The translations under genes and the position numbers were made by a program. A model generated the notes under the pieces. That model was not told the DNA's origin and did not search any database. It saw only the letters and a list, made by a program, of their open reading frames with translations. 43,188 bases of DNA, taken from the IMG/VR virus record IMGVR_UViG_3300045988_081280; one strand, given 5' to 3'. Position 1 is the first letter of the stretch. Each line of letters begins with the position of its first letter. Of this stretch, positions 3,573 through 43,188 are shown one piece after another. Origin of the DNA: a virus.

Positions 3573-3591
3573 TTTTTCAATAATACGCCGG

Positions 3592-3630: not shown

Positions 3631-3651
3631 CGGAAATATTACTACAGCGAT

Positions 3652-3849
3652 ATGGACACAGGCGACAAAGTTATCATCATGAACCACCCGGACCGGCCCG
3701 ACCTAACCGGTCTGCAGGGCGTTATAGTGAGCCGGACGACCATAGAAGGAACGGACTTTTACAGGATAAAGGTGCACGGGTTTTTGTTAAGCGAGACATT
3801 CACGGGGCAGAACTTATGCCCGCATAAACCGGAAAGAAGGAGGAAATAG
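3652..3849 (+). CDS. Small hypothetical protein (65 aa)
   Basis: The ATG at 3652 is preferred to the TTG at 3628, which overlaps the -7 box. Confidence 0.5.
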   Translation: MDTGDKVIIMNHPDRPDLTGLQGVIVSRTTIEGTDFYRIKVHGFLLSETFTGQNLCPHKPERRRK

Positions 3850-3851
3850 CG

Positions 3852-5282: not shown

Positions 5283-5321
5283 CGGTATTACACCGAGGCA
5301 ACACCACAAAAACACCGATTT

Positions 5322-5771
5322 ATGGCTAACAAACATCCAAATACAAGCGGTCTGAGACCACCCTGGCAGCCGGGACAGAGCGGAAACCCGAAGGGGCGCA
5401 AGAAAAGCCAGGTAAACGCCACGCTTAAGACGCTGTTCGGAAAGAGCGCCAAGAAAATATATGAGCTTTCGCAGACGGAGCTGGACGAATGGGATAGCAC
5501 GCTTATAAGCCTAACCAAAGACCAGCTCTCCGCGCTTGTTATGCTTGACAGCGCCCCGGCATACCCGAAGGCGCAGGCGCTTGCAATATTGACGGATATG
5601 AAGAACGGCAGGACGGTGACTATAGAACGCCTTGCTAACAGGCTATATGACCGCAAGAAGCCGGATAAAGTTGAGCTTACCGGTAAGGACGGAAGCGACC
5701 TGATCCAGCCGCGCGTCCTGACGAAGGAGGAAGCGGCGGCCTTCCTTGACAAGTTGAACGCAGACTATTAG
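5322..5771 (+). CDS. terS: Putative terminase small subunit (DUF5681-like N-terminus)
   Basis: Contains the GQSGNPKGRKK motif and sits immediately upstream of the large terminase gene. Confidence 0.65.
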   Translation: MANKHPNTSGLRPPWQPGQSGNPKGRKKSQVNATLKTLFGKSAKKIYELSQTELDEWDSTLISLTKDQLSALVMLDSAPAYPKAQALAILTDMKNGRTVTIERLANRLYDRKKPDKVELTGKDGSDLIQPRVLTKEEAAAFLDKLNADY

Positions 5772-5774
5772 CCG

Positions 5775-7256: not shown

Positions 7257-7271
7257 AAACCGAAGAATATT

Positions 7272-8789: not shown

Positions 8790-8861
8790 GAACCCACAGA
8801 AACCGACAAAGGCCCGGAAACGGAAAATTAGGCACCTTTCCGGGCAAATAAACGACCGCTT

Positions 8862-9332
8862 ATGAGCTGTATAAAAGCAAAATTCAACGTAAACGAAGTA
8901 ATAGAGAGTTTAGGCCGGCTTTCAGACATTCTGGTCCAGGCTGTTGTCGAAGCTTTCCAGATGGCCTGCCTTGAGATAACGGCGGAGGCCCGCCAGCTTG
9001 ACACATACACCGACCAGACGAACAACCTGCGCAGCTCCATAGGCTTCGGCGTATATTTGGACGGACACCTGGTGGCGGAGAACTACCAAAACAGCGGCAG
9101 CGGATCCGCAGGAACGGGGGACGAAGGACAGCAGAAGGCGAAGGAGGATGTAGAGAGCATCGCCCGGCAGTATTCCGAAGGCATTGTGGGCGTAATAGTA
9201 GCAGGCGAATATTACGCGCTATATGTAGAAAGCAAGGGCTACGACGTACTTACAGGCCCGGCAAACAAGGCGCAGGAAATTCTGGACAAATATATCGGCA
9301 TTGTTGTAGAGGAACTTAAAGCAGCACTATAA
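8862..9332 (+). CDS. Hypothetical head-module protein
   Basis: ORF between the portal and MuF-like genes. Its stop overlaps the next start (TAATG). Confidence 0.55.
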   Translation: MSCIKAKFNVNEVIESLGRLSDILVQAVVEAFQMACLEITAEARQLDTYTDQTNNLRSSIGFGVYLDGHLVAENYQNSGSGSAGTGDEGQQKAKEDVESIARQYSEGIVGVIVAGEYYALYVESKGYDVLTGPANKAQEILDKYIGIVVEELKAAL

Positions 9333-11710: not shown

Positions 11711-11939
11711 AAAATTCCCGGAGTTCAGATGCGAACTGATTATTTACAGCTTCAGCAAGCGCTGGATCCGGGAGCTCCTCGGCGACAGCAAGAAGAGCGC
11801 GGGCGTTTTCCGCCGGCCTGTTGAGCCAAACGGCAATGCTTTCAGCTTTACCAGGAGCCGGAAGCCCCAGGGACATAACGAGAGAATCAGACGCGAAATC
11901 AAAAGGCGTCTTTTTTCGGAGGTTTTTATAATTAGCCAT
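11700..11939 (-). CDS. Small hypothetical protein, the only minus-strand gene inside the structural module (moron-like)
   Basis: The ATG at 11939 gives MANYKNLRKK...; the longer ORF starts at 11978. It is convergent with the MuF-like gene and overlaps its 3' end by 11 nt. Confidence 0.45.
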   Translation of the reverse strand: MANYKNLRKKTPFDFASDSLVMSLGLPAPGKAESIAVWLNRPAENARALLAVAEELPDPALAEAVNNQFASELREFFNE

Positions 11940-12174
11940 AATTACACAATTTTCGCAAGTGTACGAAGAAAACTGCACACGTCCAAATCTTTAGGCGGGA
12001 ATTTGAGCCGGAGCCAGCGTCTTACACTAAGTTATTTTTGCCGAATTTTGCGCGTGTCGCGTTTTCTTGCGAAGGTGGTATAATTATATACCAGGAAAAT
12101 TTACGGGCAAAATAGGGCCATTTGTGGGGCTTGTGGAAAACTATTGAAAAATAGGCCTTGTTTTGGCGCTTTTT

Positions 12175-12199
12175 GTATTAGACTAATACGCTACATTTG
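12175..12199 (+). promoter_or_regulatory. Palindrome GTATTA-GAC-TAATAC (12175..12189) plus TACATTTG -7 box (12192..12199)
   Basis: Read directly, 27 nt upstream of the scaffold gene start. Confidence 0.55.
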
Positions 12200-12225
12200 C
12201 AGGAGTAAACTAAAACGCTTTTACA

Positions 12226-12957
12226 ATGAATTTATTTGAACAAATCCTCGCGCTACTTGTTTCAACATTTCAAGGCGTGCGACGTGATGGGCTTGAGGTA
12301 TTGGCGCAAGTGCTTAGCCAGACCAACGAGACCATCGAAGAAGCTACAGCCGTAGTCAAGAAGATGACGCCGGAGAAAGTAGCAGCCTTCATTACAGATT
12401 GGCGCAAAGGCGCAGACAAGGAAATTACCAGGGCAAACCAGACATTCGAAGCCGGCCTTAAAGAAAAGTACGACTTCGTGGACAAGAAGCAGAAACCGCA
12501 GGATCCTCCGGCACCCCCACAGCCAGGATCCGCAGGCTTGACAGCGGAACAGATTGCGGAGCTCGTACAGAACGCCGTAAAAACCGCTACTGCAGACCTT
12601 ACCGCCCAGGTGTCATCCATTACCGGCGCACAGGTAGCCAGTCAGAGAAAAGCGCAGCTGGAAGGGATATTTTCAGGCACAAACGTACCTGCTTCTTTCA
12701 AGAAATCCATTCTTGAAGGATTTGAGGGCCGCAGCTTTGAAAATGATGAAGCCTTTAACGCCTACCTTACCCAGCAGAAGCAGACAGTAGCAGACTTTAC
12801 TCAGGAGCTTGCAAACGCGGGCCTCGGCGGGGCTTCAAAGCCTATCTTCGGGTCCAAGAACAGCGACGGAGTAAGCTCAGCTGTTACGAGCTTCATCAAG
12901 GACCAGGCCGATGCAGCCGCAGGCAAAGGCGGCGGCTTGAGCGGCAAGAGCATTTAA
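12226..12957 (+). CDS. Putative scaffolding protein
   Basis: Helical and low-complexity, Ala/Gln/Lys-rich. Position is upstream of the capsid genes. Confidence 0.55.
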   Translation: MNLFEQILALLVSTFQGVRRDGLEVLAQVLSQTNETIEEATAVVKKMTPEKVAAFITDWRKGADKEITRANQTFEAGLKEKYDFVDKKQKPQDPPAPPQPGSAGLTAEQIAELVQNAVKTATADLTAQVSSITGAQVASQRKAQLEGIFSGTNVPASFKKSILEGFEGRSFENDEAFNAYLTQQKQTVADFTQELANAGLGGASKPIFGSKNSDGVSSAVTSFIKDQADAAAGKGGGLSGKSI

Positions 12958-12975
12958 CAACAAACAAGTAAAATT

Positions 12976-13566
12976 ATGTTCAAAATCTACAGAAAGAACG
13001 ATGGGCGCGTAATTCGCGCTTTCGTACATAAGGTGGCGGACATCCCCAACGGCGTAAACGTAGCTACTTCAGACCTTCCGGACGGAGCTATCCTCCCGGA
13101 GGGCGCAGTCGTAGGAAAGGACTCCGCTACGGGCGTTTTCCACGTTGTAAAGACCGCGCTGGTAGCAGCAGTAGCAGGAGCAGACGCAACAACCTACACC
13201 GTAAAGAAAGGGCACCTTTTCAAAATTGGTGACGTTGTTATGCTGAAGGCAGGGGCGAAGGCCTATGCTATTACCGGCATTTCGCAGAACGTTGCAGACG
13301 CAAGCTGCGAGGATATCAGAGTGAGCACCACTCTGGGAGCCGCAGCAAAAGGCGACGCGCTTATCCTTGCAAAAGCGCAGACCGGAGGCGCAGACTCAGC
13401 GCTGCCATTCGGCAAGCCTTACGCCGTTGTTGGCGACAGCTACAACGTAACAGCCAAAGGCAACATTTTCGCAAACGCCTGGCTTGTAGGCGTAGTTAAG
13501 GAGCAGGTGGCACCGGTAGCCCCAGAGAGCGTCCGCGCACTTGTTTCAGGTATTCACTTCATTTAA
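12976..13566 (+). CDS. Putative head decoration or auxiliary capsid protein
   Basis: 196-aa Ala/Val/Gly-rich ORF directly upstream of the major capsid gene. The call is positional. Confidence 0.5.
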   Translation: MFKIYRKNDGRVIRAFVHKVADIPNGVNVATSDLPDGAILPEGAVVGKDSATGVFHVVKTALVAAVAGADATTYTVKKGHLFKIGDVVMLKAGAKAYAITGISQNVADASCEDIRVSTTLGAAAKGDALILAKAQTGGADSALPFGKPYAVVGDSYNVTAKGNIFANAWLVGVVKEQVAPVAPESVRALVSGIHFI

Positions 13567-13580
13567 CAGGAGGGTAAACG

Positions 13581-14678
13581 ATGATACAGAGTCTTATGCA
13601 GGGCCTGAACGAAAGAGATATGCAGGCAGTTGTAAATAGCTACAACCTTACCCCATTCTATTGGCCTACCCTTTTCCCGCTTAAACAGAACCTTACACTT
13701 ACCTGGAAGGCGCTGGAGCGGAAAGCCGGCCTTCGCATAGCCGCAGACATTGTGGCCAGGGGTTCTAAGCTTACAGCCAAAACCAGACAGGCAATCGCCA
13801 AGCTTACCGGCGATATTCCAAAGGTAGCCATCAAGAGAGAGAAGGACGAGGACGAGCTGAACGAATACGACCTTATGGTCGCACTTGCTTCAGACGACGC
13901 GAACCTTAAGGCGCTTGTAGAGGCGTGGGCGGAGGATACACAATTTTGCTGGGACGGCGTAGCTTCCAGGCTTGAATGGATTGCCCTCCAGACTATGTCC
14001 TTAGGTAAGGTTACACTTACCAACGAGAACAACGTAGGACCGCTTTCAGAGTTCGACGTAGATTACGAGATGGACGAGCGCAAGCTGGGCTATTTCGCCG
14101 GTTCCAACACCTGGGACAACGTAGCGGCAAAGCCTATTTCTAAGGACTTCCGTGGTGTTATTACAGCGGCGCGCAAGAAGGGCGTAAACCTTAAGTACGC
14201 CTTCATGAATACTAACACCTTCGCAAAGTTCGCAGAGATTGAGGAGGTAAAGAAAATTTCCGCAAGCTACGTTCAGAACGTACTCGGTGCTACCTTCACG
14301 CCTACCGTAGATGCGGTAAACACCGCGCTCAAAACGCTGGCCTACCTTCACGGGCTTGAGATCCGCGTAATAGACCAGAATATTACCGTAGAGCTTTCAA
14401 ACGGCGAGGAGCACACCGGCAACCCATTCGCTGACGACGTTGTCATGTTCAGCGAGAGTCTGGTGCAGGGCCAGACATTCTGGACCGTTCCGACCGACTT
14501 CAAGCGCGAGGGCACACCGGCCATCAAGGTAATGAACGGCCCTATCCTTATCAAGAAATTCGCAGAGGAGGAGCCGATCAAGGAAGTAACCATCGGCACA
14601 GCCAACGCCTTCCCGGCCTGGCTTGCAAGCGGTAACAGCTACCTTCTTGACGTAACACACGACGCGTGGTCGAAGTAG
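13581..14678 (+). CDS. Major capsid protein (lambda gpE-like size and position)
   Basis: 365 aa, followed by a strong hairpin. Gene order and length fit the call. Confidence 0.75.
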   Translation: MIQSLMQGLNERDMQAVVNSYNLTPFYWPTLFPLKQNLTLTWKALERKAGLRIAADIVARGSKLTAKTRQAIAKLTGDIPKVAIKREKDEDELNEYDLMVALASDDANLKALVEAWAEDTQFCWDGVASRLEWIALQTMSLGKVTLTNENNVGPLSEFDVDYEMDERKLGYFAGSNTWDNVAAKPISKDFRGVITAARKKGVNLKYAFMNTNTFAKFAEIEEVKKISASYVQNVLGATFTPTVDAVNTALKTLAYLHGLEIRVIDQNITVELSNGEEHTGNPFADDVVMFSESLVQGQTFWTVPTDFKREGTPAIKVMNGPILIKKFAEEEPIKEVTIGTANAFPAWLASGNSYLLDVTHDAWSK

Positions 14679-14685
14679 CATTTAA

Positions 14686-14714
14686 GGGCGGTTACATAGC
14701 ATAACCGCCCATTT
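14686..14714 (+). terminator. Hairpin after the major capsid gene
   Basis: gggcggtta-catagca-taaccgccc gives a 9-bp stem. The T-tail is weak (attt). Confidence 0.55.
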
Positions 14715-14735
14715 AACCCGAATAAAAGCAGAGCT

Positions 14736-15047
14736 ATGACGTACAAAGAGTGGATGACCCGCACAGCTTCACGCTTCCAGATAGGAGAGGCGGACGCGGA
14801 ATTGATACTTACCAACCAGGCGGACCTGATACCGGATCCGGAGGCCCAGGTGGACGTCCGGACAGCGAAAACGGCCCTTTGCAGGGAGTTCGCAACCGTT
14901 ATCCCGTTGGCAAACGTAAGCGAAGGCGGCTACAGCATAAGCTGGAATATTGAGGCGCTCAAGCTTTGGTATTCCACCACTTGCGCGGAGTTGGGCCTGC
15001 AGGATGTTTCAAAACCGAAAATTCGAAATAAGAGTTACTTATGGTAG
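14736..15047 (+). CDS. Putative head-tail connector/adaptor
   Basis: 103-aa ORF directly after the capsid gene. The call is positional. Confidence 0.55.
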   Translation: MTYKEWMTRTASRFQIGEADAELILTNQADLIPDPEAQVDVRTAKTALCREFATVIPLANVSEGGYSISWNIEALKLWYSTTCAELGLQDVSKPKIRNKSYLW

Positions 15048-15427
15048 GCTTGAGGCAATACCCACATTTTCTCTACATCTACCGAGCAGCCCAGGCGCAG
15101 CAGAACGAAAACGGCAGCTTCGAAGCCGGGACGCAGGACAGCTGGGAGCTTTTCTCCGTTTGCAGGGAGGAGCCAAATGGCAAAGGCGCGACCATTCAGG
15201 TGGCCGACAGCCAGGTGCTTGTGTTCGCGGCCCTTGTGCAGCTTCCGTCAGGGCTTGAGCAGATACCGGAAGGCACAAAGGTAGCCGTTACCGCCTTCCA
15301 GGTTCAACCGGAGATGCTCAGGGACGAAGGATGGCGAGCCGAAAGCACCAGAACGGGGCTCTTGAGAATTACCGGAACAGTAGCGAAGTACGACCGCGGC
15401 CAGCTTCATAACCGATGCTGGCTATAA
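15041..15427 (+). CDS. Putative head closure / head-tail joining protein
   Basis: 128-aa ORF overlapping both neighbours. The call is positional. Confidence 0.55.
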   Translation: MVGLRQYPHFLYIYRAAQAQQNENGSFEAGTQDSWELFSVCREEPNGKGATIQVADSQVLVFAALVQLPSGLEQIPEGTKVAVTAFQVQPEMLRDEGWRAESTRTGLLRITGTVAKYDRGQLHNRCWL

Positions 15428-15858
15428 CACCCACAGAAATGCAGACTATAGAGCTTGAAGATATTTTGTATAAGGCGCTCAAGGCTTCCGAGCCGGTAGC
15501 CGCAGCCATAGACGGGGGCATCTTCGTCCTGGGCGAAAGGCCGGAGGGTTCAGGCAAGGTGGACATAGTTATAAATACGATTACAGGCGGAACCGGCACC
15601 AGGCCACAGAACGCCGTAGTAAACGTAAATATCCACGTTCCGGACTTGCTTCTGACCATAGACGGAGTCCAGCAGAGGAAGGCCAACAGAGAACGCCTGC
15701 GCCCGGTTGTAAAAGCCGTAAGGCAGACTATCAACGCGGCGAATATTGAGGGCTTGAGCTTGCAGATCGTAGGAGAAAACATTATCCGCGAGACACAGGT
15801 GCCAGAGCACTACGCTAACATTCGGGTAAATTGTTACATAGTTCAGACAAACGAATAA
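15415..15858 (+). CDS. Putative tail completion/terminator protein
   Basis: 147-aa ORF directly upstream of the major tail protein gene. Confidence 0.55.
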   Translation: MLAITPTEMQTIELEDILYKALKASEPVAAAIDGGIFVLGERPEGSGKVDIVINTITGGTGTRPQNAVVNVNIHVPDLLLTIDGVQQRKANRERLRPVVKAVRQTINAANIEGLSLQIVGENIIRETQVPEHYANIRVNCYIVQTNE

Positions 15859-26614: not shown

Positions 26615-27937
26615 ATGGGACTTATTATCGGCGTAGGCAATAACAAGCCTACATTTCCCTATACGCAATACTACGGCGTTGAGAAGGACCTGAGCGTCGC
26701 CGGGACTTCTTGCAAGCGTATAGGTTTGGAGGAATTGCACAGGCAGCTGCCGATCCAGAGCAAAATGCGGCGTTGCTTGCTTCCGGACAACGGCAAAGTA
26801 TCGCAATACCTTCACGCGGCTAACAGCGACCTGACGGACACAGGAATGGCCGCAGACCTTACCGGAGCCAGCGGACAGAGTATGGTGGAAATTCCAGATT
26901 ATTACGCAAAATTCGAGCTTGAAGGCACGATTTTCCGCGCCCTTTTCAGCGAATACCCGCTGCCAGGCTTCCACCTCATCCCCAAACATTACATATCAGC
27001 CTGGGAGGCTACTATGGACCGCACGACGCAGACGCTTGCGAGCGTTGTAAACACTACGGCACAGTACCGAGGCGGAGGAAACAACGCCGCACGAGACGAC
27101 GCGGAGAATACCGACCTGGGCAAACCAGCCACAGCCATCAGCCTGACGAATTTCAGGGCATACGCAGCCAAACGCGGAGAGGGCTGGTCCAATTACTTGT
27201 ATAGCGCGCATAAATCGCTCTATTGGCTTTACGTTTGCGAATACGCAGACTTTAACTGCCAACTTGCATATAATTCGGATCTTGACGCTACCGGCTTCCA
27301 CCAGGGCGGCCTGGGCCCAGGCGTTACGACTTTGGAAAGCAATAAATGGTCGGCTTTCAACGGTTATTACCCGGTTATCCCTTGCGGCGTTACGCGCAGC
27401 CTCGGCAACAGTACGGGCGTAGTTCAGTACAATATGCCGGCAAGCTACGACGCAGCCGGAAAGGTTGTGGAAGTACCGAGCTACAGGGGAGTTGAAAACC
27501 CATTCGGCCACATTTGGAAATGGGTGGACGGCATCCTGTGCAACGTTCAGAGCGAAGCAGCAGGAGGAAAATCCATCGTTTACACTTCGCCGGAGTTTGA
27601 CCCCGATAAATTGGCTTCAGCCATTACCGCAGACTTTACAGCACGCGGAGAATTGCCGCGTACAAGTGGCTACGTAAAGGAGTTCATTCTGGGCGAATAC
27701 GGGGAGATTATGCCGAAAACGTTAGGAGGATCTACCAACACCTATGTAGGCGACTACTTCTATACCAACATACCGGCGGACGGAGAGGCTACGCGCGGGG
27801 TTTTGTTCGGCGGTCATTCGTACCGCGGTGCGGGTGCCGGCTTTGCGTGTGCGGACACGAACAACGCGCCTTCGAATACGGGTGCGAACTTCGGCTCCCG
27901 GCTTTGCTTCACGCCAAAACGCGAAGCCACGAATTAA
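26615..27937 (+). CDS. DGR target protein: putative receptor-binding tail fibre with a C-terminal FGE/C-type-lectin-like variable domain
   Basis: ENPFGHIWKWVDG resembles the GNVWEW motif. The C-terminus RGVLFGGHSYRGAGAGFACADTNNAPSNTGANFGSRLCF is encoded by VR1. Confidence 0.9.
   Translation: MGLIIGVGNNKPTFPYTQYYGVEKDLSVAGTSCKRIGLEELHRQLPIQSKMRRCLLPDNGKVSQYLHAANSDLTDTGMAADLTGASGQSMVEIPDYYAKFELEGTIFRALFSEYPLPGFHLIPKHYISAWEATMDRTTQTLASVVNTTAQYRGGGNNAARDDAENTDLGKPATAISLTNFRAYAAKRGEGWSNYLYSAHKSLYWLYVCEYADFNCQLAYNSDLDATGFHQGGLGPGVTTLESNKWSAFNGYYPVIPCGVTRSLGNSTGVVQYNMPASYDAAGKVVEVPSYRGVENPFGHIWKWVDGILCNVQSEAAGGKSIVYTSPEFDPDKLASAITADFTARGELPRTSGYVKEFILGEYGEIMPKTLGGSTNTYVGDYFYTNIPADGEATRGVLFGGHSYRGAGAGFACADTNNAPSNTGANFGSRLCFTPKREATN
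27795..27913 (+). repeat. DGR variable repeat VR1 (119 nt) including the 3' IMH ggctcccggctttgcttc
   Basis: Aligns without gaps to the TR at 28371..28489. Of 16 differences, 15 fall at TR adenines. Confidence 0.92.
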
Positions 27938-27947
27938 CGAAAACACG

Positions 27948-27987
27948 GCCACCAGGCCGCGCCAGATATTCTGGCCTGGTGGCTTTT
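27948..27987 (+). terminator. GC-rich hairpin plus T-run downstream of VR1 (terminator and/or DGR target-recognition hairpin)
   Basis: gccaccaggcc (27948..27958) pairs with ggcctggtggc (27973..27983), followed by tttt. Confidence 0.65.
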
Positions 27988-28013
27988 GTTCAACTTTTTT
28001 AACAGGATAATAG

Positions 28014-28346
28014 ATGACACAGACGGACGACGGAAGCCTGGCTTTCTTGAAGATTGCACCGGATCCGGAAAACAAACATTTCAACTGCAGCGAGACGACG
28101 CAGCAGAAGCTCGTAAATACTTCTTTCTGGGTTATTGACTACATAGAAAACGTAAAGACGAAATTCGGGGAAAGCCGTTTCCTGATTAAGGTCAAACCGG
28201 AGAAAGACAGCCCGGAGAGCGAGGCACGCAAATTTTTCAGTAATTCGGCAGAAATAAAGTATGTGCTGAAGAAGATAAGGGAGCTTAACGCCTTCCCGCG
28301 CAGGGTAACACTCAGAGCGTCCGGAACGCGCTATTATTTTGAGTAG
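28014..28346 (+). CDS. Candidate DGR accessory protein (positional call; not obviously Avd-like)
   Basis: 110-aa ORF between the target gene and the TR. The sequence (FWVIDYIENVKTKFGESRFLIKVK) looks beta-rich rather than like a four-helix bundle. Confidence 0.55.
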   Translation: MTQTDDGSLAFLKIAPDPENKHFNCSETTQQKLVNTSFWVIDYIENVKTKFGESRFLIKVKPEKDSPESEARKFFSNSAEIKYVLKKIRELNAFPRRVTLRASGTRYYFE

Positions 28347-28370: not shown

Positions 28371-28489
28371 GCGGGGTTTTGTTCGGCGGTAATTCGAACA
28401 ACGGTGCGAATGCCGGCTTTGCGTATGCGAACACGAACAACGCGCCTTCGAATACGAATGCGAACATCGGCTCCCGGAATTGTAACACG
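28371..28489 (+). repeat. DGR template repeat (TR, 119 nt)
   Basis: Intergenic and contains 29 adenines. In the VR frame it reads G V L F G G N S N N G A N A G F A Y A N T N N A P S N T N A N I G S R N C N T, which is rich in AAY codons. Confidence 0.92.
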
Positions 28490-28642
28490 TTAAAATAACA
28501 GGCCTACGGACATACAGGAGAGACAGAGGAGAGAGAGTCCGGAAGCCAGGAAGGAAGGCCCTGCCACTCGGCAAAAAATAAAGTTCATAAACAGGGGGAC
28601 CGGTAGGCAATAGGCCGACAGCCACCCAACGTGAAGCAAAGC

Positions 28643-29746
28643 ATGAAGCGATATAATAACCTTTTCGAGAAAATTTGCGACTTTGATAATCTGAAACTTG
28701 CCGCCGCCAACGCAAGCGCAGGCAAGGCGCAGAGGCAAGCCGTAAAGACGTTTTATGCCAACGAAACGGAGAACCTTCAGACTTTGCGCGAAAGCTTGCT
28801 TAACGGCACTTTCAAACCCAGCAAATACAAACAGTATGAGATAGAAGAAAACGCCTCCCGCAAGGCCAGCAAAAAGCGCATAATTTCAGAGCTTCCCTTT
28901 TCCCCGGACCAGATACTGCAGCACGCGGTCAAGCAGGTTTTAGGGCCTATTTTCGAAGCCACATTTACGGCGGACACGTACTGCTGTATTAAAGGCCGGG
29001 GCATACACCTATGCGCCACGAAGATACAGAAGGCCTTGAAGGAGGACCCGGAGGGCACGAAATACTGCTTTAAGGGAGATATCCGGCACTTTTACCAGGA
29101 AATAGACCACGCCATCCTGAAGGACGGAATAAGGACTAAAATAAAGGATAAAAGGACGCTTGACCTTTTGGACCTTCTTATCAGCGCTTCAGACGAGGAC
29201 CCGGTCCTCATCAAGAAGGGAAAGAACGGGAGGATGCTGAAGGCAGAGAAAACGCCGGGCAAATCCATACCGATAGGCAATTTTACGTCCCCATTCTACG
29301 CAAATATTTACCTAAACAAGCTGGACCATTTTATAAAGGAGGTCCTGAAGGTAAAGTATTACTACAGATACGCGGACGATATAACAATTTTTGCAAGTTC
29401 AAAGGAAGAATTACACCGCATACAAAAGGCTATCTACGAATTTCTTGCAGGCTTGAAGCTTCAGCTTAAAAGTAATTGGCAGATTTTCCCGGTAGAGGCA
29501 CGCGGGGTGGACTTCCTGGGCTACGTATTTTTTCACGGTTACACCCTTTTACGCGAGAGCATAAAGCGCAACTTCTGCCGCCGTATTGCAAAGCTTAACA
29601 AGCGTGTGGGGCTTACGGAAGCGGAATTTAAGAGGGAGACCGGCTCATGGTGGGGATGGGCGAAATATTGCGATAGCCGCCATTTAATACAAACCATTAA
29701 CAAAAGATCCAAGTATGAAATCAAATTCAAACGAAAGGCCGCCTAA
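28643..29746 (+). CDS. DGR reverse transcriptase
   Basis: Contains YRYADDITIF (YADD catalytic box) and the IPIGNFTSPFYANIYL motif. N-terminus MKRYNNLFEKI. It begins about 150 nt downstream of the TR. The ORF track starts it at the GTG at 28631. Confidence 0.92.
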   Translation: MKRYNNLFEKICDFDNLKLAAANASAGKAQRQAVKTFYANETENLQTLRESLLNGTFKPSKYKQYEIEENASRKASKKRIISELPFSPDQILQHAVKQVLGPIFEATFTADTYCCIKGRGIHLCATKIQKALKEDPEGTKYCFKGDIRHFYQEIDHAILKDGIRTKIKDKRTLDLLDLLISASDEDPVLIKKGKNGRMLKAEKTPGKSIPIGNFTSPFYANIYLNKLDHFIKEVLKVKYYYRYADDITIFASSKEELHRIQKAIYEFLAGLKLQLKSNWQIFPVEARGVDFLGYVFFHGYTLLRESIKRNFCRRIAKLNKRVGLTEAEFKRETGSWWGWAKYCDSRHLIQTINKRSKYEIKFKRKAA

Positions 29747-31619: not shown

Positions 31620-31865
31620 GGGGACGAAAAAACCCGATTTTTTCGCCTTTTCGGGTCCAAAATCGGGTCTTTAATTTTTAACTCCTTGACTATTAGCAAG
31701 GGATTGCGGTGAGAGGGGTATGCGAACCGGAGAACCCGTGGAAGCTCATAAAGTACCAAAAAGCCATTTTGCAGGCGCTTAAGGCCGAATTTCCGAAGGC
31801 TTGAATTTCGCGGGGTTCCTTGAAATTCCACGACGCACACCAAAAACCGGGTCAAAAAACGGGTC
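31620..31865. other. Candidate attP region
   Basis: About 250 bp of non-coding sequence next to the 3' end of int. It is bracketed by two CGGGTC-N6-CGGGTC direct-repeat pairs (31652..31669 and 31848..31865). Confidence 0.4.
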
Positions 31866-33207
31866 ACATACCGGGCCCATCTTCCGGGCCGCTTTCGTAA
31901 TTGTCAAATTTTGACATTTCCTGAGCCTTGAGCGAATCAACGATTTTCGTGTAGGGCTTCATAGCCTTGTGGTCAGAGTGGCCGGTCCAGGACATAACGA
32001 CATCGGACGGAATACCCAGGCGCAGGGCATTGACGACGAAGGTACGACGCGCGGCGTGCGTTGAGAGTACCGACCATTTCGGCACCGTTTCCTCGTAGCG
32101 TTGGGAGCCGACGAAATAGACGATCCGGTGCGGAGTATTGAAGCCGCAGAGCTTACCGATGACTTTAAGCTGTTCGTTCATTTTCTGGTTTGAGATAACA
32201 GGCAGGGCCCTCCCGTCCTCAAATTCAAAATCCTTGTATTTTTCGAGGATAGCGCGGCTGTAGCGGTTCAGTTCGATACGCAGGGGCTCCGCCGTTTTCT
32301 GGGTTACGACATAGAGGAAATCCCCACGGATATCAGAGCGCCGGAGCTTCGCAAGATCCGAGTAGCGGAGGGAGGTAAAGCAGCAGAAGCAGAAGGCATC
32401 CCGGATGGGGCCGAGGTACGGGGCGCGCTTCTTTGGAAATTCGAACCGGTACAGGGCCATAAGTTCCTCCCATTCCAAATATATTATTTCCTTCAGGGCA
32501 CCGTCCCCGCCCTTAAACTTCGGGCGCCAGGTAAGCTCCAGCCGGCTGGGGTTGTAGCCTTCCTTAGCCGCCCAGCGGAGGAACTCCCGAATATAGGCGA
32601 CATATTTAGACGCGGTCGTGTTCCGGATCCCGGCGCGGCGCATATATTCCAGGAAGGAGGAAAGGTGCGCTTCCTTGAGTTGAGAAAACGGCGGGAAATT
32701 CACGCCGGAGGCTTTCAGGTGCTTTTTTATAGTAGCATACTTCACGAAGGTATCGTCGCTCCATTCGTTGCAGACGCTTACGCTTTTGACGAACAGGTCG
32801 AACACTTCGAAGAAGCCGGGCTCCTTGTTTTTGGAGGACGCGCCGAGCGTTTCCAGGACCTTAGCGGAGACGGGCCCGTCCTGGGCCAGAAAGGCGGCAA
32901 ATTCGGCACGGAGTTCGGCGGCGGTAGGATAACGCGCCTCCAGGAACGCGAACTTATTAAAGGCCTTTTCTATGGCCGCAAGCGAATCGCTTATTTTGCC
33001 GTTCAGGGTACCGGCCCCCTGGCCGTAGGGGTTCAGGGTGTTAGGCTTGACGCGGCACGCTTCCCTGTCCCATTTTTCAGGCTCCACGACGATACCGGGG
33101 AACAGGGCGCAGCGCTCCCCGTTCCAGCTTACGCGCAGACGGACGGAGGCGGGAGCAGAGGACCCGCCGGAACGCAGGTGCAGGTCTATTTTAACGCTAT
33201 GCTTCAT
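31864..33207 (-). CDS. int: Tyrosine integrase (Bacteroidales phage/CTn type)
   Basis: Catalytic-type motifs SLRYSD, HAARRTF and GHSDHKAMKPYTKI are present. The start is set at MKHSVKIDL (ATGA overlap with the upstream gene); the longer ORF reaches 33243. Confidence 0.9.
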   Translation of the reverse strand: MKHSVKIDLHLRSGGSSAPASVRLRVSWNGERCALFPGIVVEPEKWDREACRVKPNTLNPYGQGAGTLNGKISDSLAAIEKAFNKFAFLEARYPTAAELRAEFAAFLAQDGPVSAKVLETLGASSKNKEPGFFEVFDLFVKSVSVCNEWSDDTFVKYATIKKHLKASGVNFPPFSQLKEAHLSSFLEYMRRAGIRNTTASKYVAYIREFLRWAAKEGYNPSRLELTWRPKFKGGDGALKEIIYLEWEELMALYRFEFPKKRAPYLGPIRDAFCFCCFTSLRYSDLAKLRRSDIRGDFLYVVTQKTAEPLRIELNRYSRAILEKYKDFEFEDGRALPVISNQKMNEQLKVIGKLCGFNTPHRIVYFVGSQRYEETVPKWSVLSTHAARRTFVVNALRLGIPSDVVMSWTGHSDHKAMKPYTKIVDSLKAQEMSKFDNYESGPEDGPGM

Positions 33208-33500
33208 CTTGTAAAGGCGCGGCCCTTCCCGGTATAGAGCCACCGGGCCGAAACCGAATAACGGGTTATAAGGTAGTAAATGGCCTCCGTTTCAACGTAG
33301 GTGTAGCGGCTTACACCATCCGGAGCGGCGCAAGGGCCGTACTTCAGGCGAAGCTCCCTGTAACGCGGAGCTGAAAGGCCGTTTTCCTCACAGAAGCCGG
33401 AGAGGGACGGCAGGCGGCCCAGCTGCTCAAGGGTTGCGACAGCTTCGAAAAAGCGGCGGTTCAGCGCTTCCTGAATTGGGGTTATTTTCTTGCTCAGCAT
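33204..33500 (-). CDS. CI-type HTH protein (possible excisionase or regulator)
   Basis: Ends in ARWLYTGKGRAF, resembling the phage CI HTH family signature EWLLTGxG. It lies directly upstream of int. Confidence 0.55.
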   Translation of the reverse strand: MLSKKITPIQEALNRRFFEAVATLEQLGRLPSLSGFCEENGLSAPRYRELRLKYGPCAAPDGVSRYTYVETEAIYYLITRYSVSARWLYTGKGRAFTR

Positions 33501-36973: not shown

Positions 36974-39070
36974 ATGAAGAAAGTAGTAAAACTCATTTCC
37001 TTACACCTTGAGAACTTCAAAGGGGCAAAGGACACGCTGGTGAACTTCGGGGAAGTTACCAGAATTTCGGGAGCCAACGGCACCGGCAAAAGCACCATTT
37101 TCGACGCCTTCACGTGGGTGCTCTTTGGCAAGAACGCGGAGGATCGCACGGACAGCGGAAAGGGCGGCTTCCAGCTCAAGACCGTAGATGGCAGCGGCGA
37201 GAGTTTGCACAACCTTGAGCACAGAGTAACGGCGGTGCTTGAGGTAAACGGCCAGCGCTTCGAGTTTTCGAAGCTTCTGAAGGAGCAATGGGTGAAGAAG
37301 CGCGGCACGGCGGAAATAGTATTTTCCGGGCACGCTACGCAGTATTTCATCGACGGCCTGGAAGTAAAGGCCAGCCGCTACGAGGAGCAGATCAGCGGGA
37401 TAATAAACGCCCAGCTTTTCAAGCTCATTACAAACCCTACCTATTTCCCGGCTTTGGATTGGAAGAAGCAGCGCGACATCCTCACGACGATAGCCGGAAG
37501 CGTAACGCTTGAGATGGTGGCAGCGGGTAACGCGGATTTTGAAGCCATCCTCCGGGAGCTTTCCGGAAAGAGCTTGCAGGAGTTCAGGGAGGCGAAGGCC
37601 TACGACAAGAAAACGGCGAAGCAGGAGCTGGACGACATCCCGGTGAGGATTGCCAGCATAGAGGACGCGACACCGGCACCGCACGAAGGCAACGCCGCAG
37701 AGCTTGAGGCACAGAAGGTGGCAGCCCAGGCGCAGCTGCCGGAGCTTGACGCGCAGCTGACAGACATAGCGGAGGCGACGCGCCAGAGATACGCCAAAGC
37801 GCGCGACCTTGAACAGCAGATCGGAGAACTTCAGCTGCAGCGCGAGCACATTATAAACGACGCGAGACAGCAGGAACAGGCGCGGTGCTTCGAGGCCAAC
37901 GCCCGACGCAGGGAGATGGAGGCGGAAATAAAGAGGCTAAGCGCGGAGATTGCCGGAAATATGGACAGAGCCACCAGGGAGCAGCAGGACGCAGTCAGCC
38001 GCCGCTCGGCCATTGAGCATCAGGTCGCACAGCTTGAGGAAAGAGTCAAGGACTTGCGGGCACAGTTTTACAGGAAGAAGGGCGAGACCTACACCAGCAA
38101 GGAAAACGAAGCCTTTGTCTGCCCGGTATTCGGCCACCTTTGCGGGGACGCAGCGGCCATAAGGACCAGGGAGGACCAGGCACAGAGGGCAGAAGAAGTA
38201 TGGTACCAGAAACAGCGCGAAGCTATTATGGCCATTCAGGAGGAGGGAAAGCAGCTGAACGAAGAAATAGCCCGGAAACAGCAGGAAATAGCCCAACTTC
38301 AGGAGGAGGCCGACTCAGCCTATTGGAAAGGCGTAAACGCGGGCCGCGAAACGCAGCAGCGCATCAACGAACTGAAAGCCCAGCTTGAGGGACAGAAGGA
38401 GGAAACGCCGAAGGCGATAGTAGGGACGGACATCAAGGAATGGCGCGAGCTTTCCAACAAGATAGACCACCTTACTATGGACCTTAACTCCTTCCGGAGC
38501 GATGCGGAGAACCCAGACGGCAACGGCCAGACGGAGGAGAGCCGCAAGGCGCAGATCTTCGAGCGCAAGGCAGCCATAAACGCCGAAATAGCGGCCATAA
38601 GCAAGACCCTCGGAGAGATAGAGGCAACGGAGAGGGTAAGGGCGAAGAACGCCGCCCAGATAGCGCAGCTGCGCGCAAGGGAGAGGGAGCTGGCCCAGAG
38701 GATTGCGGAGATAGAGAAGCGCGAAATGTTGGCGGACAGCTTGCAGCACGCCCAGATGGACGAAATAGAACGCAGGGTAAACGGGATGTTCAAAATGGTA
38801 CGCTTCAGGATGTACGAAAAGCAGATTAACGGCGGCGAAACCGACACCTGCCTGGCTATGATTAACGGCGTACCTTTCGCGGACGCCAACAAGGCCGGAA
38901 AGATAAACGGAGGGCTTGACATCATAAACACCCTCTGCCGCTTCCACGGCATTACGGCGCCTATCTTCATAGACAACGCCGAAAGCGTTAACGATTTTAT
39001 CCCTACCGAAAGCCAGATTATAAAGCTTGAAGTAACCAGGGAACCACAGCTAACAATTACCGAAGAATAA
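36974..39070 (+). CDS. SMC/SbcC/Rad50-like AAA ATPase
   Basis: The N-terminus LENFKGAKD...ISGANGTGKSTIFDAF carries a Walker A motif. A long central coiled coil follows, and IFIDNAESV near the C-terminus is Walker B-like. Confidence 0.85.
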   Translation: MKKVVKLISLHLENFKGAKDTLVNFGEVTRISGANGTGKSTIFDAFTWVLFGKNAEDRTDSGKGGFQLKTVDGSGESLHNLEHRVTAVLEVNGQRFEFSKLLKEQWVKKRGTAEIVFSGHATQYFIDGLEVKASRYEEQISGIINAQLFKLITNPTYFPALDWKKQRDILTTIAGSVTLEMVAAGNADFEAILRELSGKSLQEFREAKAYDKKTAKQELDDIPVRIASIEDATPAPHEGNAAELEAQKVAAQAQLPELDAQLTDIAEATRQRYAKARDLEQQIGELQLQREHIINDARQQEQARCFEANARRREMEAEIKRLSAEIAGNMDRATREQQDAVSRRSAIEHQVAQLEERVKDLRAQFYRKKGETYTSKENEAFVCPVFGHLCGDAAAIRTREDQAQRAEEVWYQKQREAIMAIQEEGKQLNEEIARKQQEIAQLQEEADSAYWKGVNAGRETQQRINELKAQLEGQKEETPKAIVGTDIKEWRELSNKIDHLTMDLNSFRSDAENPDGNGQTEESRKAQIFERKAAINAEIAAISKTLGEIEATERVRAKNAAQIAQLRARERELAQRIAEIEKREMLADSLQHAQMDEIERRVNGMFKMVRFRMYEKQINGGETDTCLAMINGVPFADANKAGKINGGLDIINTLCRFHGITAPIFIDNAESVNDFIPTESQIIKLEVTREPQLTITEE

Positions 39071-39117
39071 CAGTATTAACCGGGCCCGGACCTTCCGGGC
39101 CATAACAACCAACAATC

Positions 39118-39837
39118 ATGAATGACAAAAAAGACATTAGGGACAGAGTTAAGACCTACGAGGACGCCTGCATGGTGTTAGGGATTGACACAAAAACGCC
39201 GGAGCTTCCGAACATTCCGGAGAGGGACCGCAGGGGCGTAACAGCCTACTACAAGCTTATCATCATCGCCCGCGCATTGAACGAAGGATGGGCGCCGGAT
39301 TGGAAGAACGAAAGAGAGGGAAAAGCGGTGCCGTACTTCTATTTCGACAGGGAGAACAACACTATTGCCGGCTTTGCGTTTGCGTCCACGTACGGCGCGC
39401 CTTCGATTACGTCTGCGAGCTTCGGCTCCCGGCTTTGCTTCAAAACGGAAGCGCTTGCGGAATACGCGGCCACGCAGTTTGAGGAATTGTGGCGGGATTA
39501 CATTCTGTACCCCAACGACGTAACGGATCCGGAGGAAGAAGAACCATCGGTCGCCGACTTCCTTCTGTTCAGCGAGAACAGCAGGCGGGAGCTTGAGCGC
39601 AAATGCCGCAAGTTCGACGACGCCTGCTATATGACCCTTGCCTGCGCAAAAGGAGAGGACGGAGCCGAAGCGGCTGCAGGATTTGGCGGCAACCCGAAGA
39701 TGATGGGGCGGCTTCTTGCGGAGATATTCAGCCAGCAGGATTTGAGGGAAGTATTTATGGCGATGCTTCACTATATGGACGTTAAGAAGGAGGCAGCCAG
39801 GATGGGCAAGACTACCGTAGAAATTCGCCACGACTAA
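39118..39837 (+). CDS. Second DGR target candidate: small non-structural protein with an internal variable repeat
   Basis: Residues 84-108 (AGFAFASTYGAPSITSASFGSRLCF) are encoded by VR2. VPYFYFD parallels GDYFYTN of the VR1 protein. About 130 further residues follow the VR. Confidence 0.8.
   Translation: MNDKKDIRDRVKTYEDACMVLGIDTKTPELPNIPERDRRGVTAYYKLIIIARALNEGWAPDWKNEREGKAVPYFYFDRENNTIAGFAFASTYGAPSITSASFGSRLCFKTEALAEYAATQFEELWRDYILYPNDVTDPEEEEPSVADFLLFSENSRRELERKCRKFDDACYMTLACAKGEDGAEAAAGFGGNPKMMGRLLAEIFSQQDLREVFMAMLHYMDVKKEAARMGKTTVEIRHD
39366..39441 (+). repeat. DGR variable repeat VR2 (76 nt), matching the 3' part of the TR (28411..28486)
   Basis: The 11 differences before cggctcccgg all fall at TR adenines. 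The 3' end ggctcccggctttgcttc is identical to the VR1 IMH. The reading frame is the same as in VR1. Confidence 0.85.
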
Positions 39838-39906
39838 CAGGATCAGGAAAATAGTAATACCGGCCTTCGGGCCGGTTCAAGAAACAACAACCAAATTTTT
39901 ACAGAT

Positions 39907-40749
39907 ATGGAAAAAGCAACAACAAAGCTCCCGGCAGCGGAGCCACAGAGCGCCGAAAAGGGCGTAACCGTTTATCAGGTAGCAGGGCAGGAAGTAAAAC
40001 TTTCCTACGCCATTGTCAGAAATTTCCTTACCAGGGGCAACGGCAAGGTCTCAGACGCGGAGATCGTACAATTTATTAGCCTTTGCCGCTTTAACCAGCT
40101 TAACCCGTTCCTGGGCGAGGCGTACCTGGTCAAATACAGCGACAGCACCCCGGCGCAGCTTGTATCAAGCAAGGAGAGCTTTATGAAGCGCGCGGAGAGC
40201 AGCAACCACTATCAGGGCTACAGGGCCGGAGTCATTGTCCTGAGGGACAACCAGGCTATAGAGCTTGAAGGGGCCTTCCTTTTGCCTACGGATAAGCTGG
40301 TCGGAGGTTGGGCAGAAGTTTACAGGGATGATCGCAAGTTTCCGATAGTAGCCCGCGTAAGCTTCGCGGAGTACAACAAGGGACAGAGCACCTGGAACGA
40401 AAAGCCGGCAACGATGATCCGCAAAGTAGCGGAGGCGCAGGCCTTCCGCGAGGCGTTCCCGGTTCAGTTGGGCGCGATGTACACGCCGGAGGAAGGGACG
40501 GAGTCCGACGACCAGGGCGCAGGCCTTCTGGCAGCTGCAGCAGTAGAAGAACAGATGGCGGAGAACGGGAACAGGCAGGCGCTGACCTTCGGAGCCCCGG
40601 CAGCCCAGGAGGCGCAGCCGACACAGGCAGGAACACAGGAGGCGCAGCAGGAAGCGGCACCGGCACCGAGACCGGCGACACAGCCCGCAAGGCCTATGGC
40701 TTCGAGGGAGGCCGGCGCTAATATGAACTTCACGGAACCGGGATTTTAA
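39907..40749 (+). CDS. recT: RecT-family single-strand annealing recombinase
   Basis: FISLCRFNQLNPFLGEAYLVKY...WNEKPATMIRKVAEAQAFREAFP fits the RecT family. The C-terminal tail is Ala/Gln-rich. Confidence 0.85.
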   Translation: MEKATTKLPAAEPQSAEKGVTVYQVAGQEVKLSYAIVRNFLTRGNGKVSDAEIVQFISLCRFNQLNPFLGEAYLVKYSDSTPAQLVSSKESFMKRAESSNHYQGYRAGVIVLRDNQAIELEGAFLLPTDKLVGGWAEVYRDDRKFPIVARVSFAEYNKGQSTWNEKPATMIRKVAEAQAFREAFPVQLGAMYTPEEGTESDDQGAGLLAAAAVEEQMAENGNRQALTFGAPAAQEAQPTQAGTQEAQQEAAPAPRPATQPARPMASREAGANMNFTEPGF

Positions 40750-40758
40750 CAGGAGGCT

Positions 40759-41520
40759 ATGAAGCTTACGGTCATAGGAAGCAGCAGCGCCGGAAACGGC
40801 TACATCCTTGACGCGGGGGACGAAGCCCTGGTCCTTGAGGCCGGGGTCCCCTTCGCCAGAGTAAAGGAGGCGCTGAACTTCAATATAACCAAAATAGCGG
40901 CGTGCCTTATAACGCACGAGCACAAGGACCACAGCGGCCACATAGAGGAAGCGATGGCCAGCGCAGTCCCCTGCTATTGCAGCGCGGGCACGGCGGACGC
41001 AATACGCTACAAGGGGAGGCGCAGACCGGGCATCCTGAAGGCGGCCACTATCTACCGCTTCGGCGGCTTCCTTGTGCAGCCTTTCGAGGCGGTACACGAC
41101 GCAGCGGAGCCCTTCGGCTACTACATACACCATCCCCAGATGGGAAGCGAGGGGCAAAGCCTTCTTTTCGCCACGGATACGGCCTATCTAAAGCACCGCT
41201 TCAGCGGATTGCAGACGGTGCTCATAGAAGCGAATTACAGCCTTGAGTATTTGCAGGAGGGAACCCAGACGGGACGCATACCGAAGCAGGTGCGGGACAG
41301 GATCATAAAGAGCCACATGAGCATCGACCACGCGGTCGAGACATTGAAGAAAAACGACTTAAGCGCCTTGCATACCGTTGTCCTGATACATTTGTCAGCG
41401 GACAACAGCAACGCGGACGAGTTCCGGCAGAGGATGGAGACAGCGCTGCACATTCCGACGGCGGAGGTATTGGTGGCAAGGCCGGGGCTTGAAGTACAGA
41501 TTAACGATTTACCATTTTAA
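40759..41520 (+). CDS. Metallo-beta-lactamase-fold hydrolase (probable nuclease partner of RecT)
   Basis: Contains the HEHKDHSG (HxHxDH) motif and directly follows recT. Confidence 0.8.
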   Translation: MKLTVIGSSSAGNGYILDAGDEALVLEAGVPFARVKEALNFNITKIAACLITHEHKDHSGHIEEAMASAVPCYCSAGTADAIRYKGRRRPGILKAATIYRFGGFLVQPFEAVHDAAEPFGYYIHHPQMGSEGQSLLFATDTAYLKHRFSGLQTVLIEANYSLEYLQEGTQTGRIPKQVRDRIIKSHMSIDHAVETLKKNDLSALHTVVLIHLSADNSNADEFRQRMETALHIPTAEVLVARPGLEVQINDLPF

Positions 41521-42462: not shown

Positions 42463-43188
42463 ATGGCTTTAAGAGATAACCCATATATAATGCTTGACGT
42501 AGATAGCTTTATGAACGACGAAAAGCTGCGGTGTTGTTCCCCGGCTTCCGTTGGGATATATATCCGCTTGCTTTGCGTTTTGCATAAAAGCGACACCTAC
42601 GGAGCAATTTTGTACCAACAAAAGGACTTACAAAAAGCAAAAATTTGTGGGTACAAAAACCCTAACAAAATTCAAATTTTTGTTGCGATGCTTTCGCGCC
42701 AACTTCCGGAAACAAGGGAAGAAATAGAAGCAGCCTTAACGGAACTTTTTGAAGAAGGCGTAATACAAATTTACGACAATAGGCTGGAGCAAAAAAGGAT
42801 GGTCCGGGACGCGGAAATCAGCGAAAAACGCCAACAGGCGCGCTCTCAGAGGCGTAAAGCTCACGAAAGCCAGGCCGCAGAGACACAGGAAGAAACTGAA
42901 TTTTGTACCTACAAAACAGCTAACAAAAATCAAAATTTTGTACCTACAAAATTTGAAAATTTGTTGGATACGTGCGCGCACGCGAATACCTTCTCCTCCT
43001 CTTTAGAAAAAGAAAATATAAAAGAAAAAGAGGATGAAAGTAAAGGAAAGAGGGTGCAGGGGGAAAACCATCCAAAAAGCGACGGTTCGGAAATTTCGGC
43101 CTTCGTTGAGCTTTGGAACGACACCTGCCCGGACTTCCCAAGCGTAAAGAAGCTGACCACTAAGCGCAGGGATAAGATCCGCGCCAGG
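42463..43188 (+). CDS. Replication initiator-like protein, N-terminal part (DUF1376/YdaU-like; runs off the window and continues at nt 3..368)
   Basis: ATG at 42463, hand-translated with no stop to the window end. It is absent from the ORF track because it is open-ended. N-terminus YIMLDVDSFMNDEKLRCCSPASVGIYIRLLCVLHKS. Confidence 0.7.
   Translation, partial: MALRDNPYIMLDVDSFMNDEKLRCCSPASVGIYIRLLCVLHKSDTYGAILYQQKDLQKAKICGYKNPNKIQIFVAMLSRQLPETREEIEAALTELFEEGVIQIYDNRLEQKRMVRDAEISEKRQQARSQRRKAHESQAAETQEETEFCTYKTANKNQNFVPTKFENLLDTCAHANTFSSSLEKENIKEKEDESKGKRVQGENHPKSDGSEISAFVELWNDTCPDFPSVKKLTTKRRDKIRAR
42608..42951. repeat. Iteron-like repeats TTTTGTACCNACAAAA inside the initiator gene (candidate origin of replication)
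   Basis: Exact 16-mers at 42901..42916 and 42936..42951. Variants are at 42608..42623 and, inverted, 42644..42658. Each unit is a near-palindrome TTTTGTA-NN-TACAAAA. Confidence 0.6.
43070..43188. repeat. Terminal overlap, identical to 1..119
   Basis: Exact 119-nt match with the window start. Confidence 0.95.

Follow-up and report, generated by a model that had tools for sequence, protein, structure and literature searches.

A probable second live target of a single phage diversity-generating retroelement in a non-tail member of the phrog_11581 family

The gut-phage sequence IMGVR_UViG_3300045988_081280 (43,188 nucleotides, analysed at its full length and called the window here) carries a single diversity-generating retroelement (DGR) with a reverse transcriptase (RT), a template repeat (TR), and a first variable repeat (VR1) at the end of a tail-type gene. 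We conclude that a second variable repeat, VR2, at 39366..39441 is in all probability a live second target of this DGR, and that it lies in a non-tail gene, a long form of the early phage family phrog_11581, whose product would, judged from its context, be a cytoplasmic binder.

Relationship of VR2 to the template repeat

An earlier note on the window had described VR2 from the letters alone, and its description is reproduced in each of the following respects: i) an ungapped alignment pairs 39366..39441 with TR 28411..28486 without a gap; ii) the differences from TR in the first 67 nt, all of them upstream of GGCTCCCGG, fall at TR adenines in 11/11 cases (28425, 28430, 28431, 28436, 28439, 28440, 28452, 28457, 28458, 28464, and 28466) and at no other TR base, an outcome with a hypergeometric chance of 3.4e-9 given 16 A in the 67 nt of this TR stretch; iii) the 3′ 18 nt of VR2, GGCTCCCGGCTTTGCTTC, are those of VR1 rather than of the TR end, with exact copies in the window at 27893 (VR1) and 39424 (VR2) only, these 2 observed sites comparing with 0.13 matches at ≤3 mismatches in shuffled sequence; and iv) VR2 is read in the frame of VR1 and supplies residues 84-108 of the 239 amino acid (aa) open reading frame (ORF) 39118..39837.

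The TR counterpart of GGCTCCCGGCTTTGCTTC is GGCTCCCGGAATTGTAAC, so that GGCTCCCGG is followed by CTTTGCTTC in both VR1 and VR2 and by AATTGTAAC in TR, the usual asymmetry between the initiation of mutagenic homing site (IMH) of a variable repeat and the IMH* of its template. At the other end, the homology opens with TGCCGGCTTTGCGT, an adenine-free 14-mer which is exact in VR1, TR, and VR2. Because the 5′ boundary of such repeats is known to depend on homology (PMC5758913), this 14-mer may, by analogy, be the place where cDNA resolves into VR2.

Continuing diversification of VR2

The earlier note had suggested comparing relatives for adenine-restricted divergence at VR2. In a set of 29 sequences, made up of the closest homologues (81-91% identity) and the members of their 90% clusters, the proteins are near-identical outside the repeat and yet the VR2 peptide is distinct in 29/29. 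Column entropy is found only at residues 88, 90, 92, 93, 97, 99, 101, and 102, and more weakly at 91 and 98; these columns correspond to the adenine-containing TR codons TAT, AAC, ACG, AAC, AAC, AAT, ACG, AAT, AAC, and ATC; and residue 88 is restricted to F/S/Y/C (TNT) and residue 102 to F/L/I/V (NTC), as adenine mutagenesis predicts. In a prophage copy with flanks 94-96% identical to the window (locus L166), VR2 likewise departs from the TR of the window at adenines only, and its differences from the VR2 of the window are confined to TR-adenine positions.

TR, VR1, and VR2 can be read on one contig in three genomes: the window, 2703719081_000001 (L001 and L169), and 3300021426_000117 (L002 and L160). 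Each of these three lineages has its own non-adenine variants (GGCTTT/GGTCTT/GGTTTT; CCTTCG vs CCCACG) which are common to TR, VR1, and VR2, and in the same three genomes VR1 and VR2 deviate from TR, and from each other, at adenine positions only. The shared lineage-specific variants therefore argue that VR2 has been overwritten repeatedly from its own TR, independently of VR1. VR2 thus changes together with its cognate TR and, as read from these sequence comparisons, is active and rewritten independently of VR1 rather than fossil, upholding the proposal that the same DGR has in it a genuine second variable repeat.

The phrog_11581 family as a DGR substrate

The VR2 protein falls in the PHROGs family phrog_11581, of unknown function (E = 3e-34), and has 122 database homologues; genes of this type occur at more than 476 IMG/VR loci and at 240 loci in GTDB species representatives, the latter nearly all from Bacteroidota or Ignavibacteria. 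For a survey of DGRs we fetched 80 IMG/VR and 81 GTDB loci and sought an RT within 10 kb. A DGR-type RT was present in 42/80 IMG/VR loci, all of which (42/42) have adenine-biased variable repeats inside family genes and most of which (36/42) have two or three tandem targets; 1059/1090 mismatches over all IMG/VR pairs of variable and template repeats are at adenines. Among the GTDB loci, an RT was present in 48/81 and adenine-biased variable repeats were found in family genes in 41. Family repeats are 64-88 nt long (median 76, 82 repeats) and lie within the segment AGF...GSRLCF. The phrog_11581 family is, by this evidence from sequence, a habitual DGR substrate, widespread in Bacteroidota phages and prophages.

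VR2 had been described as a truncated repeat, a description which no longer holds: its 76 nt are the native length of the family, and it looks truncated because the TR of the window phage, which also serves a tail protein, is longer. Most family members are 134-200 aa, and all share ALNEGWxPDW, the variable segment AGF...GSRLCF, and then a helix of about 25 aa, KxxxLAxYAxxQF. Since this conserved helix follows the repeat in every member, no family repeat reaches the extreme C-terminus. The earlier statement that the repeat is internal and followed by a further domain is accordingly right for residues 84-108, but needs qualification as to the extra domain of about 110 aa, which is confined to the long forms (the window protein and relatives of 250-260 aa) and is predicted to be alpha/beta and not immunoglobulin (Ig)-like. 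Close relatives of the long form are represented in GTDB genomes by one distant Paludibacter match only. Searched by itself with exhaustive phmmer, the C-terminal domain matched, apart from its own cluster, only the repeat protein P0163 (no useful Pfam match); a word-indexed search of the domain found nothing, among 2 candidates only, and was probably uninformative.

The region preceding the repeat had been thought a pared-down version of the VR1 protein scaffold. This did not survive comparison, as BLASTP finds the two proteins similar in the 25 TR-encoded residues only. Homology of the two scaffolds, which hhalign put at 95% probability, fell to 0.25% once the TR-encoded segment was trimmed, and we reject it as an artefact of the shared segment. 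Structure prediction for the 239-aa protein alone, also proposed earlier, yielded a confident model of the N-domain (pLDDT 85, pTM 0.81; full-length model, pLDDT 77) but no neighbour in the PDB; matches in BFVD are to uncharacterised gut-phage proteins only, and a search of PDB sequences with the family hidden Markov model (HMM) returned nothing.

Several members of the family deserve separate mention. Distant copies are also found at L130, L144, L153, L215, L217, L233, and L246. L130 (IMGVR_UViG_2643221924_000001, 2343..15641) is a DGR whose only detected targets are three small-family copies: one adjoins the TR, another lies between repressor and Ant (3.8 kb upstream), and the last follows a helicase/methylase (8.9 kb downstream); this DGR lies wholly in the early region (repressor, Ant, replication-initiator, helicase), and the arrangement in L217 (Dyadobacter sp. 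Leaf189) is the same. At L028/L114 (8551..9779) and L116 (3..1305), three tandem small-family paralogues stand directly upstream of one TR and RT, each with its own repeat of about 79 nt and with mismatches at adenines only. L215 (Dyadobacter sp. CY261, 10001..10666) encodes a long form, 32% identical over residues 2-233, with a TR at 2953..3026, 7.2 kb from the variable repeat, and therefore the arrangement of a long form at a distance reaches Cytophagales prophages. The 197-aa members P0108 and P0116 are identical save for a longer variable segment, RSYYNAYAVGGLVYSSAYAASSYSHASFG as against RSVDNAVAYGGLVYSSANYASSVSYASFG, and thus some family branches use a repeat which reaches further upstream. 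Finally, Bacteroides phage BT-TP2 (L181, PQ571279.1) has at 12001..12210, at the very end of the linear record, an unannotated stretch which encodes the opening ~70 residues of a protein of this family (44% identity); its RT is beside a giant 2262-aa protein, and the family gene is probably split by the start point of the record.

The DGR cassette and the genomic neighbourhood

The features of the window are collected in Table 1. The order runs from the tail-type VR1 target through the accessory ORF, TR, RT, and a few small genes to an attachment (att) region near 31700; then come integrase and repressor on the minus strand and a rightward early operon with regulators, the SbcC-like ATPase of the structural maintenance of chromosomes (SMC) type, the VR2 gene, RecT, and a metallo-beta-lactamase (MBL)-fold protein, with a DnaC-like loader across the circular junction. 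RT homologues are found on 139 IMG/VR contigs, the majority with adjacent adenine-biased pairs of template and variable repeats.

Table 1. Coordinates of the DGR, its two variable repeats, and neighbouring genes in the window
Feature	Position	Strand	Evidence or remark
VR2, second DGR variable repeat	39366..39441	+	ungapped TR match, 11/11 A-restricted; 29/29 close relatives differ
VR2 portion before GC-rich block/IMH, 58 nt	39366..39423	+	anchor and mutagenised stretch
Adenine-free 14-nt block TGCCGGCTTTGCGT, putative 5′ homology anchor	39366..39379	+	exact in VR1/TR/VR2; TR homology begins here
Mutagenised stretch of VR2, 42 nt	39380..39421	+	
GC-rich block GGCTCCCGG and IMH CTTTGCTTC, 18 nt, encoding conserved GSRLCF	39424..39441	+	identical to VR1 27893..27910; TR has IMH* AATTGTAAC
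VR2 protein gene, 239 aa	39118..39837	+	N-domain ~1-130 is phrog_11581, with the repeat at 84-108; C-domain ~135-239 is long-form-specific
Template repeat (TR)	28371..28486	+	VR1 draws on all of TR; VR2 on 28411..28486
VR1, C-terminus of tail-type target	27795..27910	+	11/11 TR mismatches at adenines over 107 nt
VR1 target gene, 440 aa	26615..27937	+	phrog_5302 'tail protein', E = 2.5e-122
Small accessory ORF (110 aa), usual Avd position, between VR1 gene and TR	28014..28346	+	phrog_19665 (unknown function) only
DGR reverse transcriptase, adjoining TR	28631..29746	+	Pfam RVT_1, E = 2.8e-21
SbcC/SMC-like ATPase, immediately upstream of VR2 gene	36974..39070	+	
RecT recombinase, immediately downstream of VR2 gene	39907..40749	+	Pfam RecT, E = 9e-40
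MBL-fold hydrolase, weak Apyc1-like signal	40759..41520	+	
Integrase	31864..33243	-	prophage junction near 31700

The assembly of the window is circular, its two ends (1..119 and 43070..43188) forming a direct repeat of 119 nt. The earlier estimate that VR2 is about 11 kb from the RT cassette is right one way round (~11 kb to TR, ~9.6 kb to the 3′ end of the RT gene), but the circle makes the other path ~32 kb, and it is the longer path that should apply in the integrated prophage: because the prophage junction is near 31700, VR2 and the cassette should be near opposite prophage ends. The L166 copy is integrated beside a bacterial GH3 gene, with its junction at about window 31700, and runs from L166 2052 onward; in a related contig in prophage form, VR2 and RT are ~38 kb apart. 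A megablast search of GenBank phages with 38000..41000 gave no match, and in a search with the RT protein identity was 44% or less, to crAss-like phages.

The placing of the VR2 gene between an SMC-like ATPase and RecT, in the early or recombination module, stands. The order ATPase, VR2 gene, RecT, and MBL-fold protein is kept in a relative at 46% identity, and homologues are found in the early or replication regions of unrelated phages: short members follow Gam in Mu-like prophages, another follows a PD-(D/E)XK nuclease near an SNF2 helicase, a Prim-Pol, and a methylase, and that of the P0116 locus is in an accessory island with HigB and a Tad2/Sequestin-like gene. This neighbourhood points to an early, non-virion protein.

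Two further observations concern the same region. The MBL-fold protein has a sub-threshold Pfam match to the anti-Pycsar protein Apyc1 (19.8 bits vs a cutoff of 50), and its orthologue at L162 has a stronger precomputed match; it could be the nuclease partner of RecT or a cyclic-nucleotide-degrading counter-defence enzyme. The database protein P0034 (138 aa, on an ENA contig of 11395 bp) joins window 39118..~39390 to 27911..27995, so that the N-terminal ~90 residues of the VR2 protein are fused out of frame to the sequence which follows VR1; it could have come about through a mis-join during assembly or through a genuine recombination event across the VR1/VR2 repeat.

Possible mechanism and function

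The priming and homing steps at VR2 are modelled on those of Bordetella phage BPP-1 and would run as follows: the RT (28631..29746) would copy TR RNA (28371..28486), misincorporating opposite adenines; the cDNA would home to VR1 or VR2 by way of their shared 3′ recognition sequence, GGCTCCCGG with the IMH CTTTGCTTC; and at VR2 the 5′ end would be resolved at the TR-internal, adenine-free TGCCGGCTTTGCGT, so that only the last 16 TR adenines, in ten codons, would be transferred, for ~3e9 possible peptides. The VR2 protein would be made early and act in the cytoplasm through a hypervariable loop for binding, alongside a tail protein which tracks surface receptors. An intracellular ligand is plausible from the genomic context; inside the cell the loop probably tracks a partner which changes quickly, and the likeliest candidates are a defence factor of the host and a competing element.

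More tentatively, and we are inclined to doubt rather than to believe it, the phrog_11581 family as a whole might consist of DGR-driven 'adaptive' intracellular binders, re-randomised to neutralise or sense evolving proteins of host defence or of competitors. If so, many Bacteroidota phages would run DGRs for intracellular conflict and not for receptor recognition, some of these DGRs serving tandem family copies only, and viruses would have in this family a first general class of anti-defence (or exclusion) proteins subject to hypermutation.

We wish to stress that several results weigh against VR2 as a live target in an intracellular binder. Folding of the region 3′ of the VR2 IMH was no better than that of shuffles (z = -0.08; five sequences folded, L169 disregarded). 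The BPP-1 DGR requires a hairpin or cruciform just downstream of its IMH, a requirement established only for BPP-1-like elements. The accessory ORF has a match to phrog_19665 in PHROGs only, with no Avd or other match in Pfam, and the VR2 protein has no match in Pfam, NCBIfam, or PADLOC. Foldseek found no significant PDB match to the full-length or the N-domain model (none at E < 3 for the latter), and a C-lec (C-type lectin) fold, the usual DGR scaffold, was not detected by Foldseek, by the HMM search of the PDB, or by profile comparison with the VR1 protein. A very divergent C-lec fold may nonetheless be present in the VR2 protein, because the distal DGR target of Quimbyvirus, ORF84, is reported with a C-lec domain (PMC8008677). 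In addition, the activity of VR2 is read from differences between genomes and not within a population, it is the gene neighbourhood only that points to an early, non-virion protein, and the use of one TR for this protein and for a tail receptor-binding protein could instead be a sign that the ligands of the two are alike and extracellular.

Alternative explanations have been considered for the repeat itself and for the protein which contains it. VR2 could be a fossil, either a relic of past homing or the product of domain shuffling from a DGR target, and no longer rewritten; its distance from the cassette, its being shorter than VR1, and the failure to detect a downstream hairpin would all fit, but this reading is contradicted, and made very improbable, by the fact that all 29 near-identical relatives differ at adenine-coded positions only, by three lineages in which non-adenine changes of the TR reappear in its VR2, and by an IMH which is intact and identical to that of VR1. 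There is next to no chance that the resemblance is fortuitous, or that an assembly artefact copied part of VR1 into another gene: dozens of independent assemblies, as well as the isolated phage BI-TP1, show the same arrangement in conserved synteny, and shuffles yield far fewer IMH matches than the two seen, which together contradict this account even though the chimeric P0034 indicates that mis-joins at the repeat are possible.

Two other accounts accept VR2 as a target of the DGR but assign its protein a different role. A guardian of the lysogen, that is, a prophage-encoded sensor or exclusion factor whose loop recognises proteins of competing phages and which is not a counter-defence tool of the infecting phage, is unlikely, if the least so of the four: the phages are temperate, with an integrase, conflict systems of bacteria have putative antigen sensors which DGRs diversify (PMC10907252), one L130 family copy is between repressor and Ant, and P0116 is in an island with HigB and a Tad2-like gene, but the window and its relatives have the gene inside the rightward early operon, between the SbcC-like ATPase and RecT, and not in a moron-like position, and no effector domain was recognised. 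We consider it improbable that the VR2 protein is instead a virion-associated or extracellular binder (such as a decoration or minor adhesin whose gene happens to lie away from the structural module), with both targets serving attachment to host or environment. The family is found in the early, replication, or immunity regions of at least five unrelated architectures (RecT-type temperate, Mu-like, LoVEphage-like, Prim-Pol type, and L130), its PHROG is of 'unknown function' and not tail, no Ig-like or anchoring domain was found, and no N-terminal signal sequence is visible by eye (no signal-peptide or transmembrane predictor was run); on the other side, those phage DGR targets which have been characterised are proteins that bind receptors (PMC8144416, PMC10743442), and one TR feeds both binding loops, so that the same sequence space is sampled. 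We therefore prefer VR2 as a live target of the DGR in an early, probably cytoplasmic protein.

Comparison with known systems

Phage DGRs are usually discussed as host-range devices acting through tail proteins, and the earlier note had regarded the distance of VR2 from the cassette, its internal position, and its non-structural gene as unusual. All three have precedents (PMC5758913; PMC8008677; PMC12629997). Wu et al. 2018 (PMC5758913) describe non-adjacent targets within the same prophage, internal and N-terminal variable repeats, an IMH of internal repeats which is constrained by coding sequence, and 5′ boundaries which vary among the targets of one TR; their catalogue is general, and in its text, as far as searched, neither the phrog_11581 family nor its early-gene context is described. 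Four induced gut Bacteroidota prophages have a distal second variable repeat near counter-defence genes (PMC12629997, Nature 2025), and Quimbyvirus ORF84 is a second, distal DGR target in a non-structural neighbourhood (PMC8008677, Benler et al. 2021).

The closest parallel in a cultured phage is gp84 of the LoVEphage-like Bacteroides phage BI-TP1 (PQ571265.1), which is ~31% identical to the VR2 protein over residues 11-130 (E = 4e-8). Its variable repeat of 107 nt has 12/12 TR mismatches at adenines. About 56 kb separate it on the map from the TR, which is on the other strand, next to an Mtd-like tail protein and an RT with a frameshift; the neighbours of gp84 are DNA methyltransferases and a tRNA ligase. 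From matching descriptions rather than sequence comparison, we infer that BI-TP1 gp84 and Quimbyvirus ORF84 are the same kind of gene. The window phage resembles BI-TP1 in having one DGR beside a tail-type target, a far second variable repeat in a non-structural region, and a Bacteroidota host. It differs in being a 43-kb RecT-type temperate phage of another lineage (vs ~71 kb), for which the megablast search gave no match and the RT search identities of 44% or less, and from BI-TP1 in that VR2 uses the 3′ 76 nt of its TR rather than 107 nt, is on the RT strand and not on the opposite one, is in a protein with an extra C-domain of ~110 aa, and has recombination genes for neighbours where gp84 has methyltransferases and a tRNA ligase.

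Like the DGR of BPP-1 (Mtd, Avd, TR, bRT), that of the window phage has the signature of adenine-specific mutagenic retrohoming, a GC-rich block followed by the IMH/IMH* asymmetry, a 5′ boundary apparently set by homology, and, in VR1, a classical tail-protein target. BPP-1 has a single, adjacent, C-terminal target and a proven C-type lectin scaffold in Mtd, which was not detected for the VR2 protein; and, unlike BPP-1, the window phage has no hairpin found 3′ of the VR2 IMH and an accessory ORF without an Avd signature. Tentaclins (PMC10743442) are likewise a second phage DGR target with a variable repeat near the N-terminus followed by further domains, but they are 313-649 aa, have DUF6273 C-lec and Ig-like domains (with a conserved C-terminal Ig anchor), have their genes next to the cassette, and have been proposed to be anchored to the virion. 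Membership of the VR2 protein among the tentaclins was considered and rejected, as it has no Pfam domains and its C-domain is predicted to be alpha/beta and not Ig-like.

VR2 does not establish a new mechanism; its value is that an early-gene family of wide occurrence can be recognised as a DGR substrate. The window adds an independent phage lineage in which one retroelement rewrites both a tail protein and an early, apparently intracellular protein, and ties the VR2 protein to BI-TP1 gp84, whose neighbourhood fits the published distal target of Quimbyvirus. The family can now be defined, with cultured representatives (BI-TP1 and LoVEphage-like phages) and with tandem arrays beside dedicated DGRs in the early regions of Mu-like, RecT-type, and other phages, and what a phage gains from hypermutating a non-virion protein becomes a question that can be put to cultured carriers.

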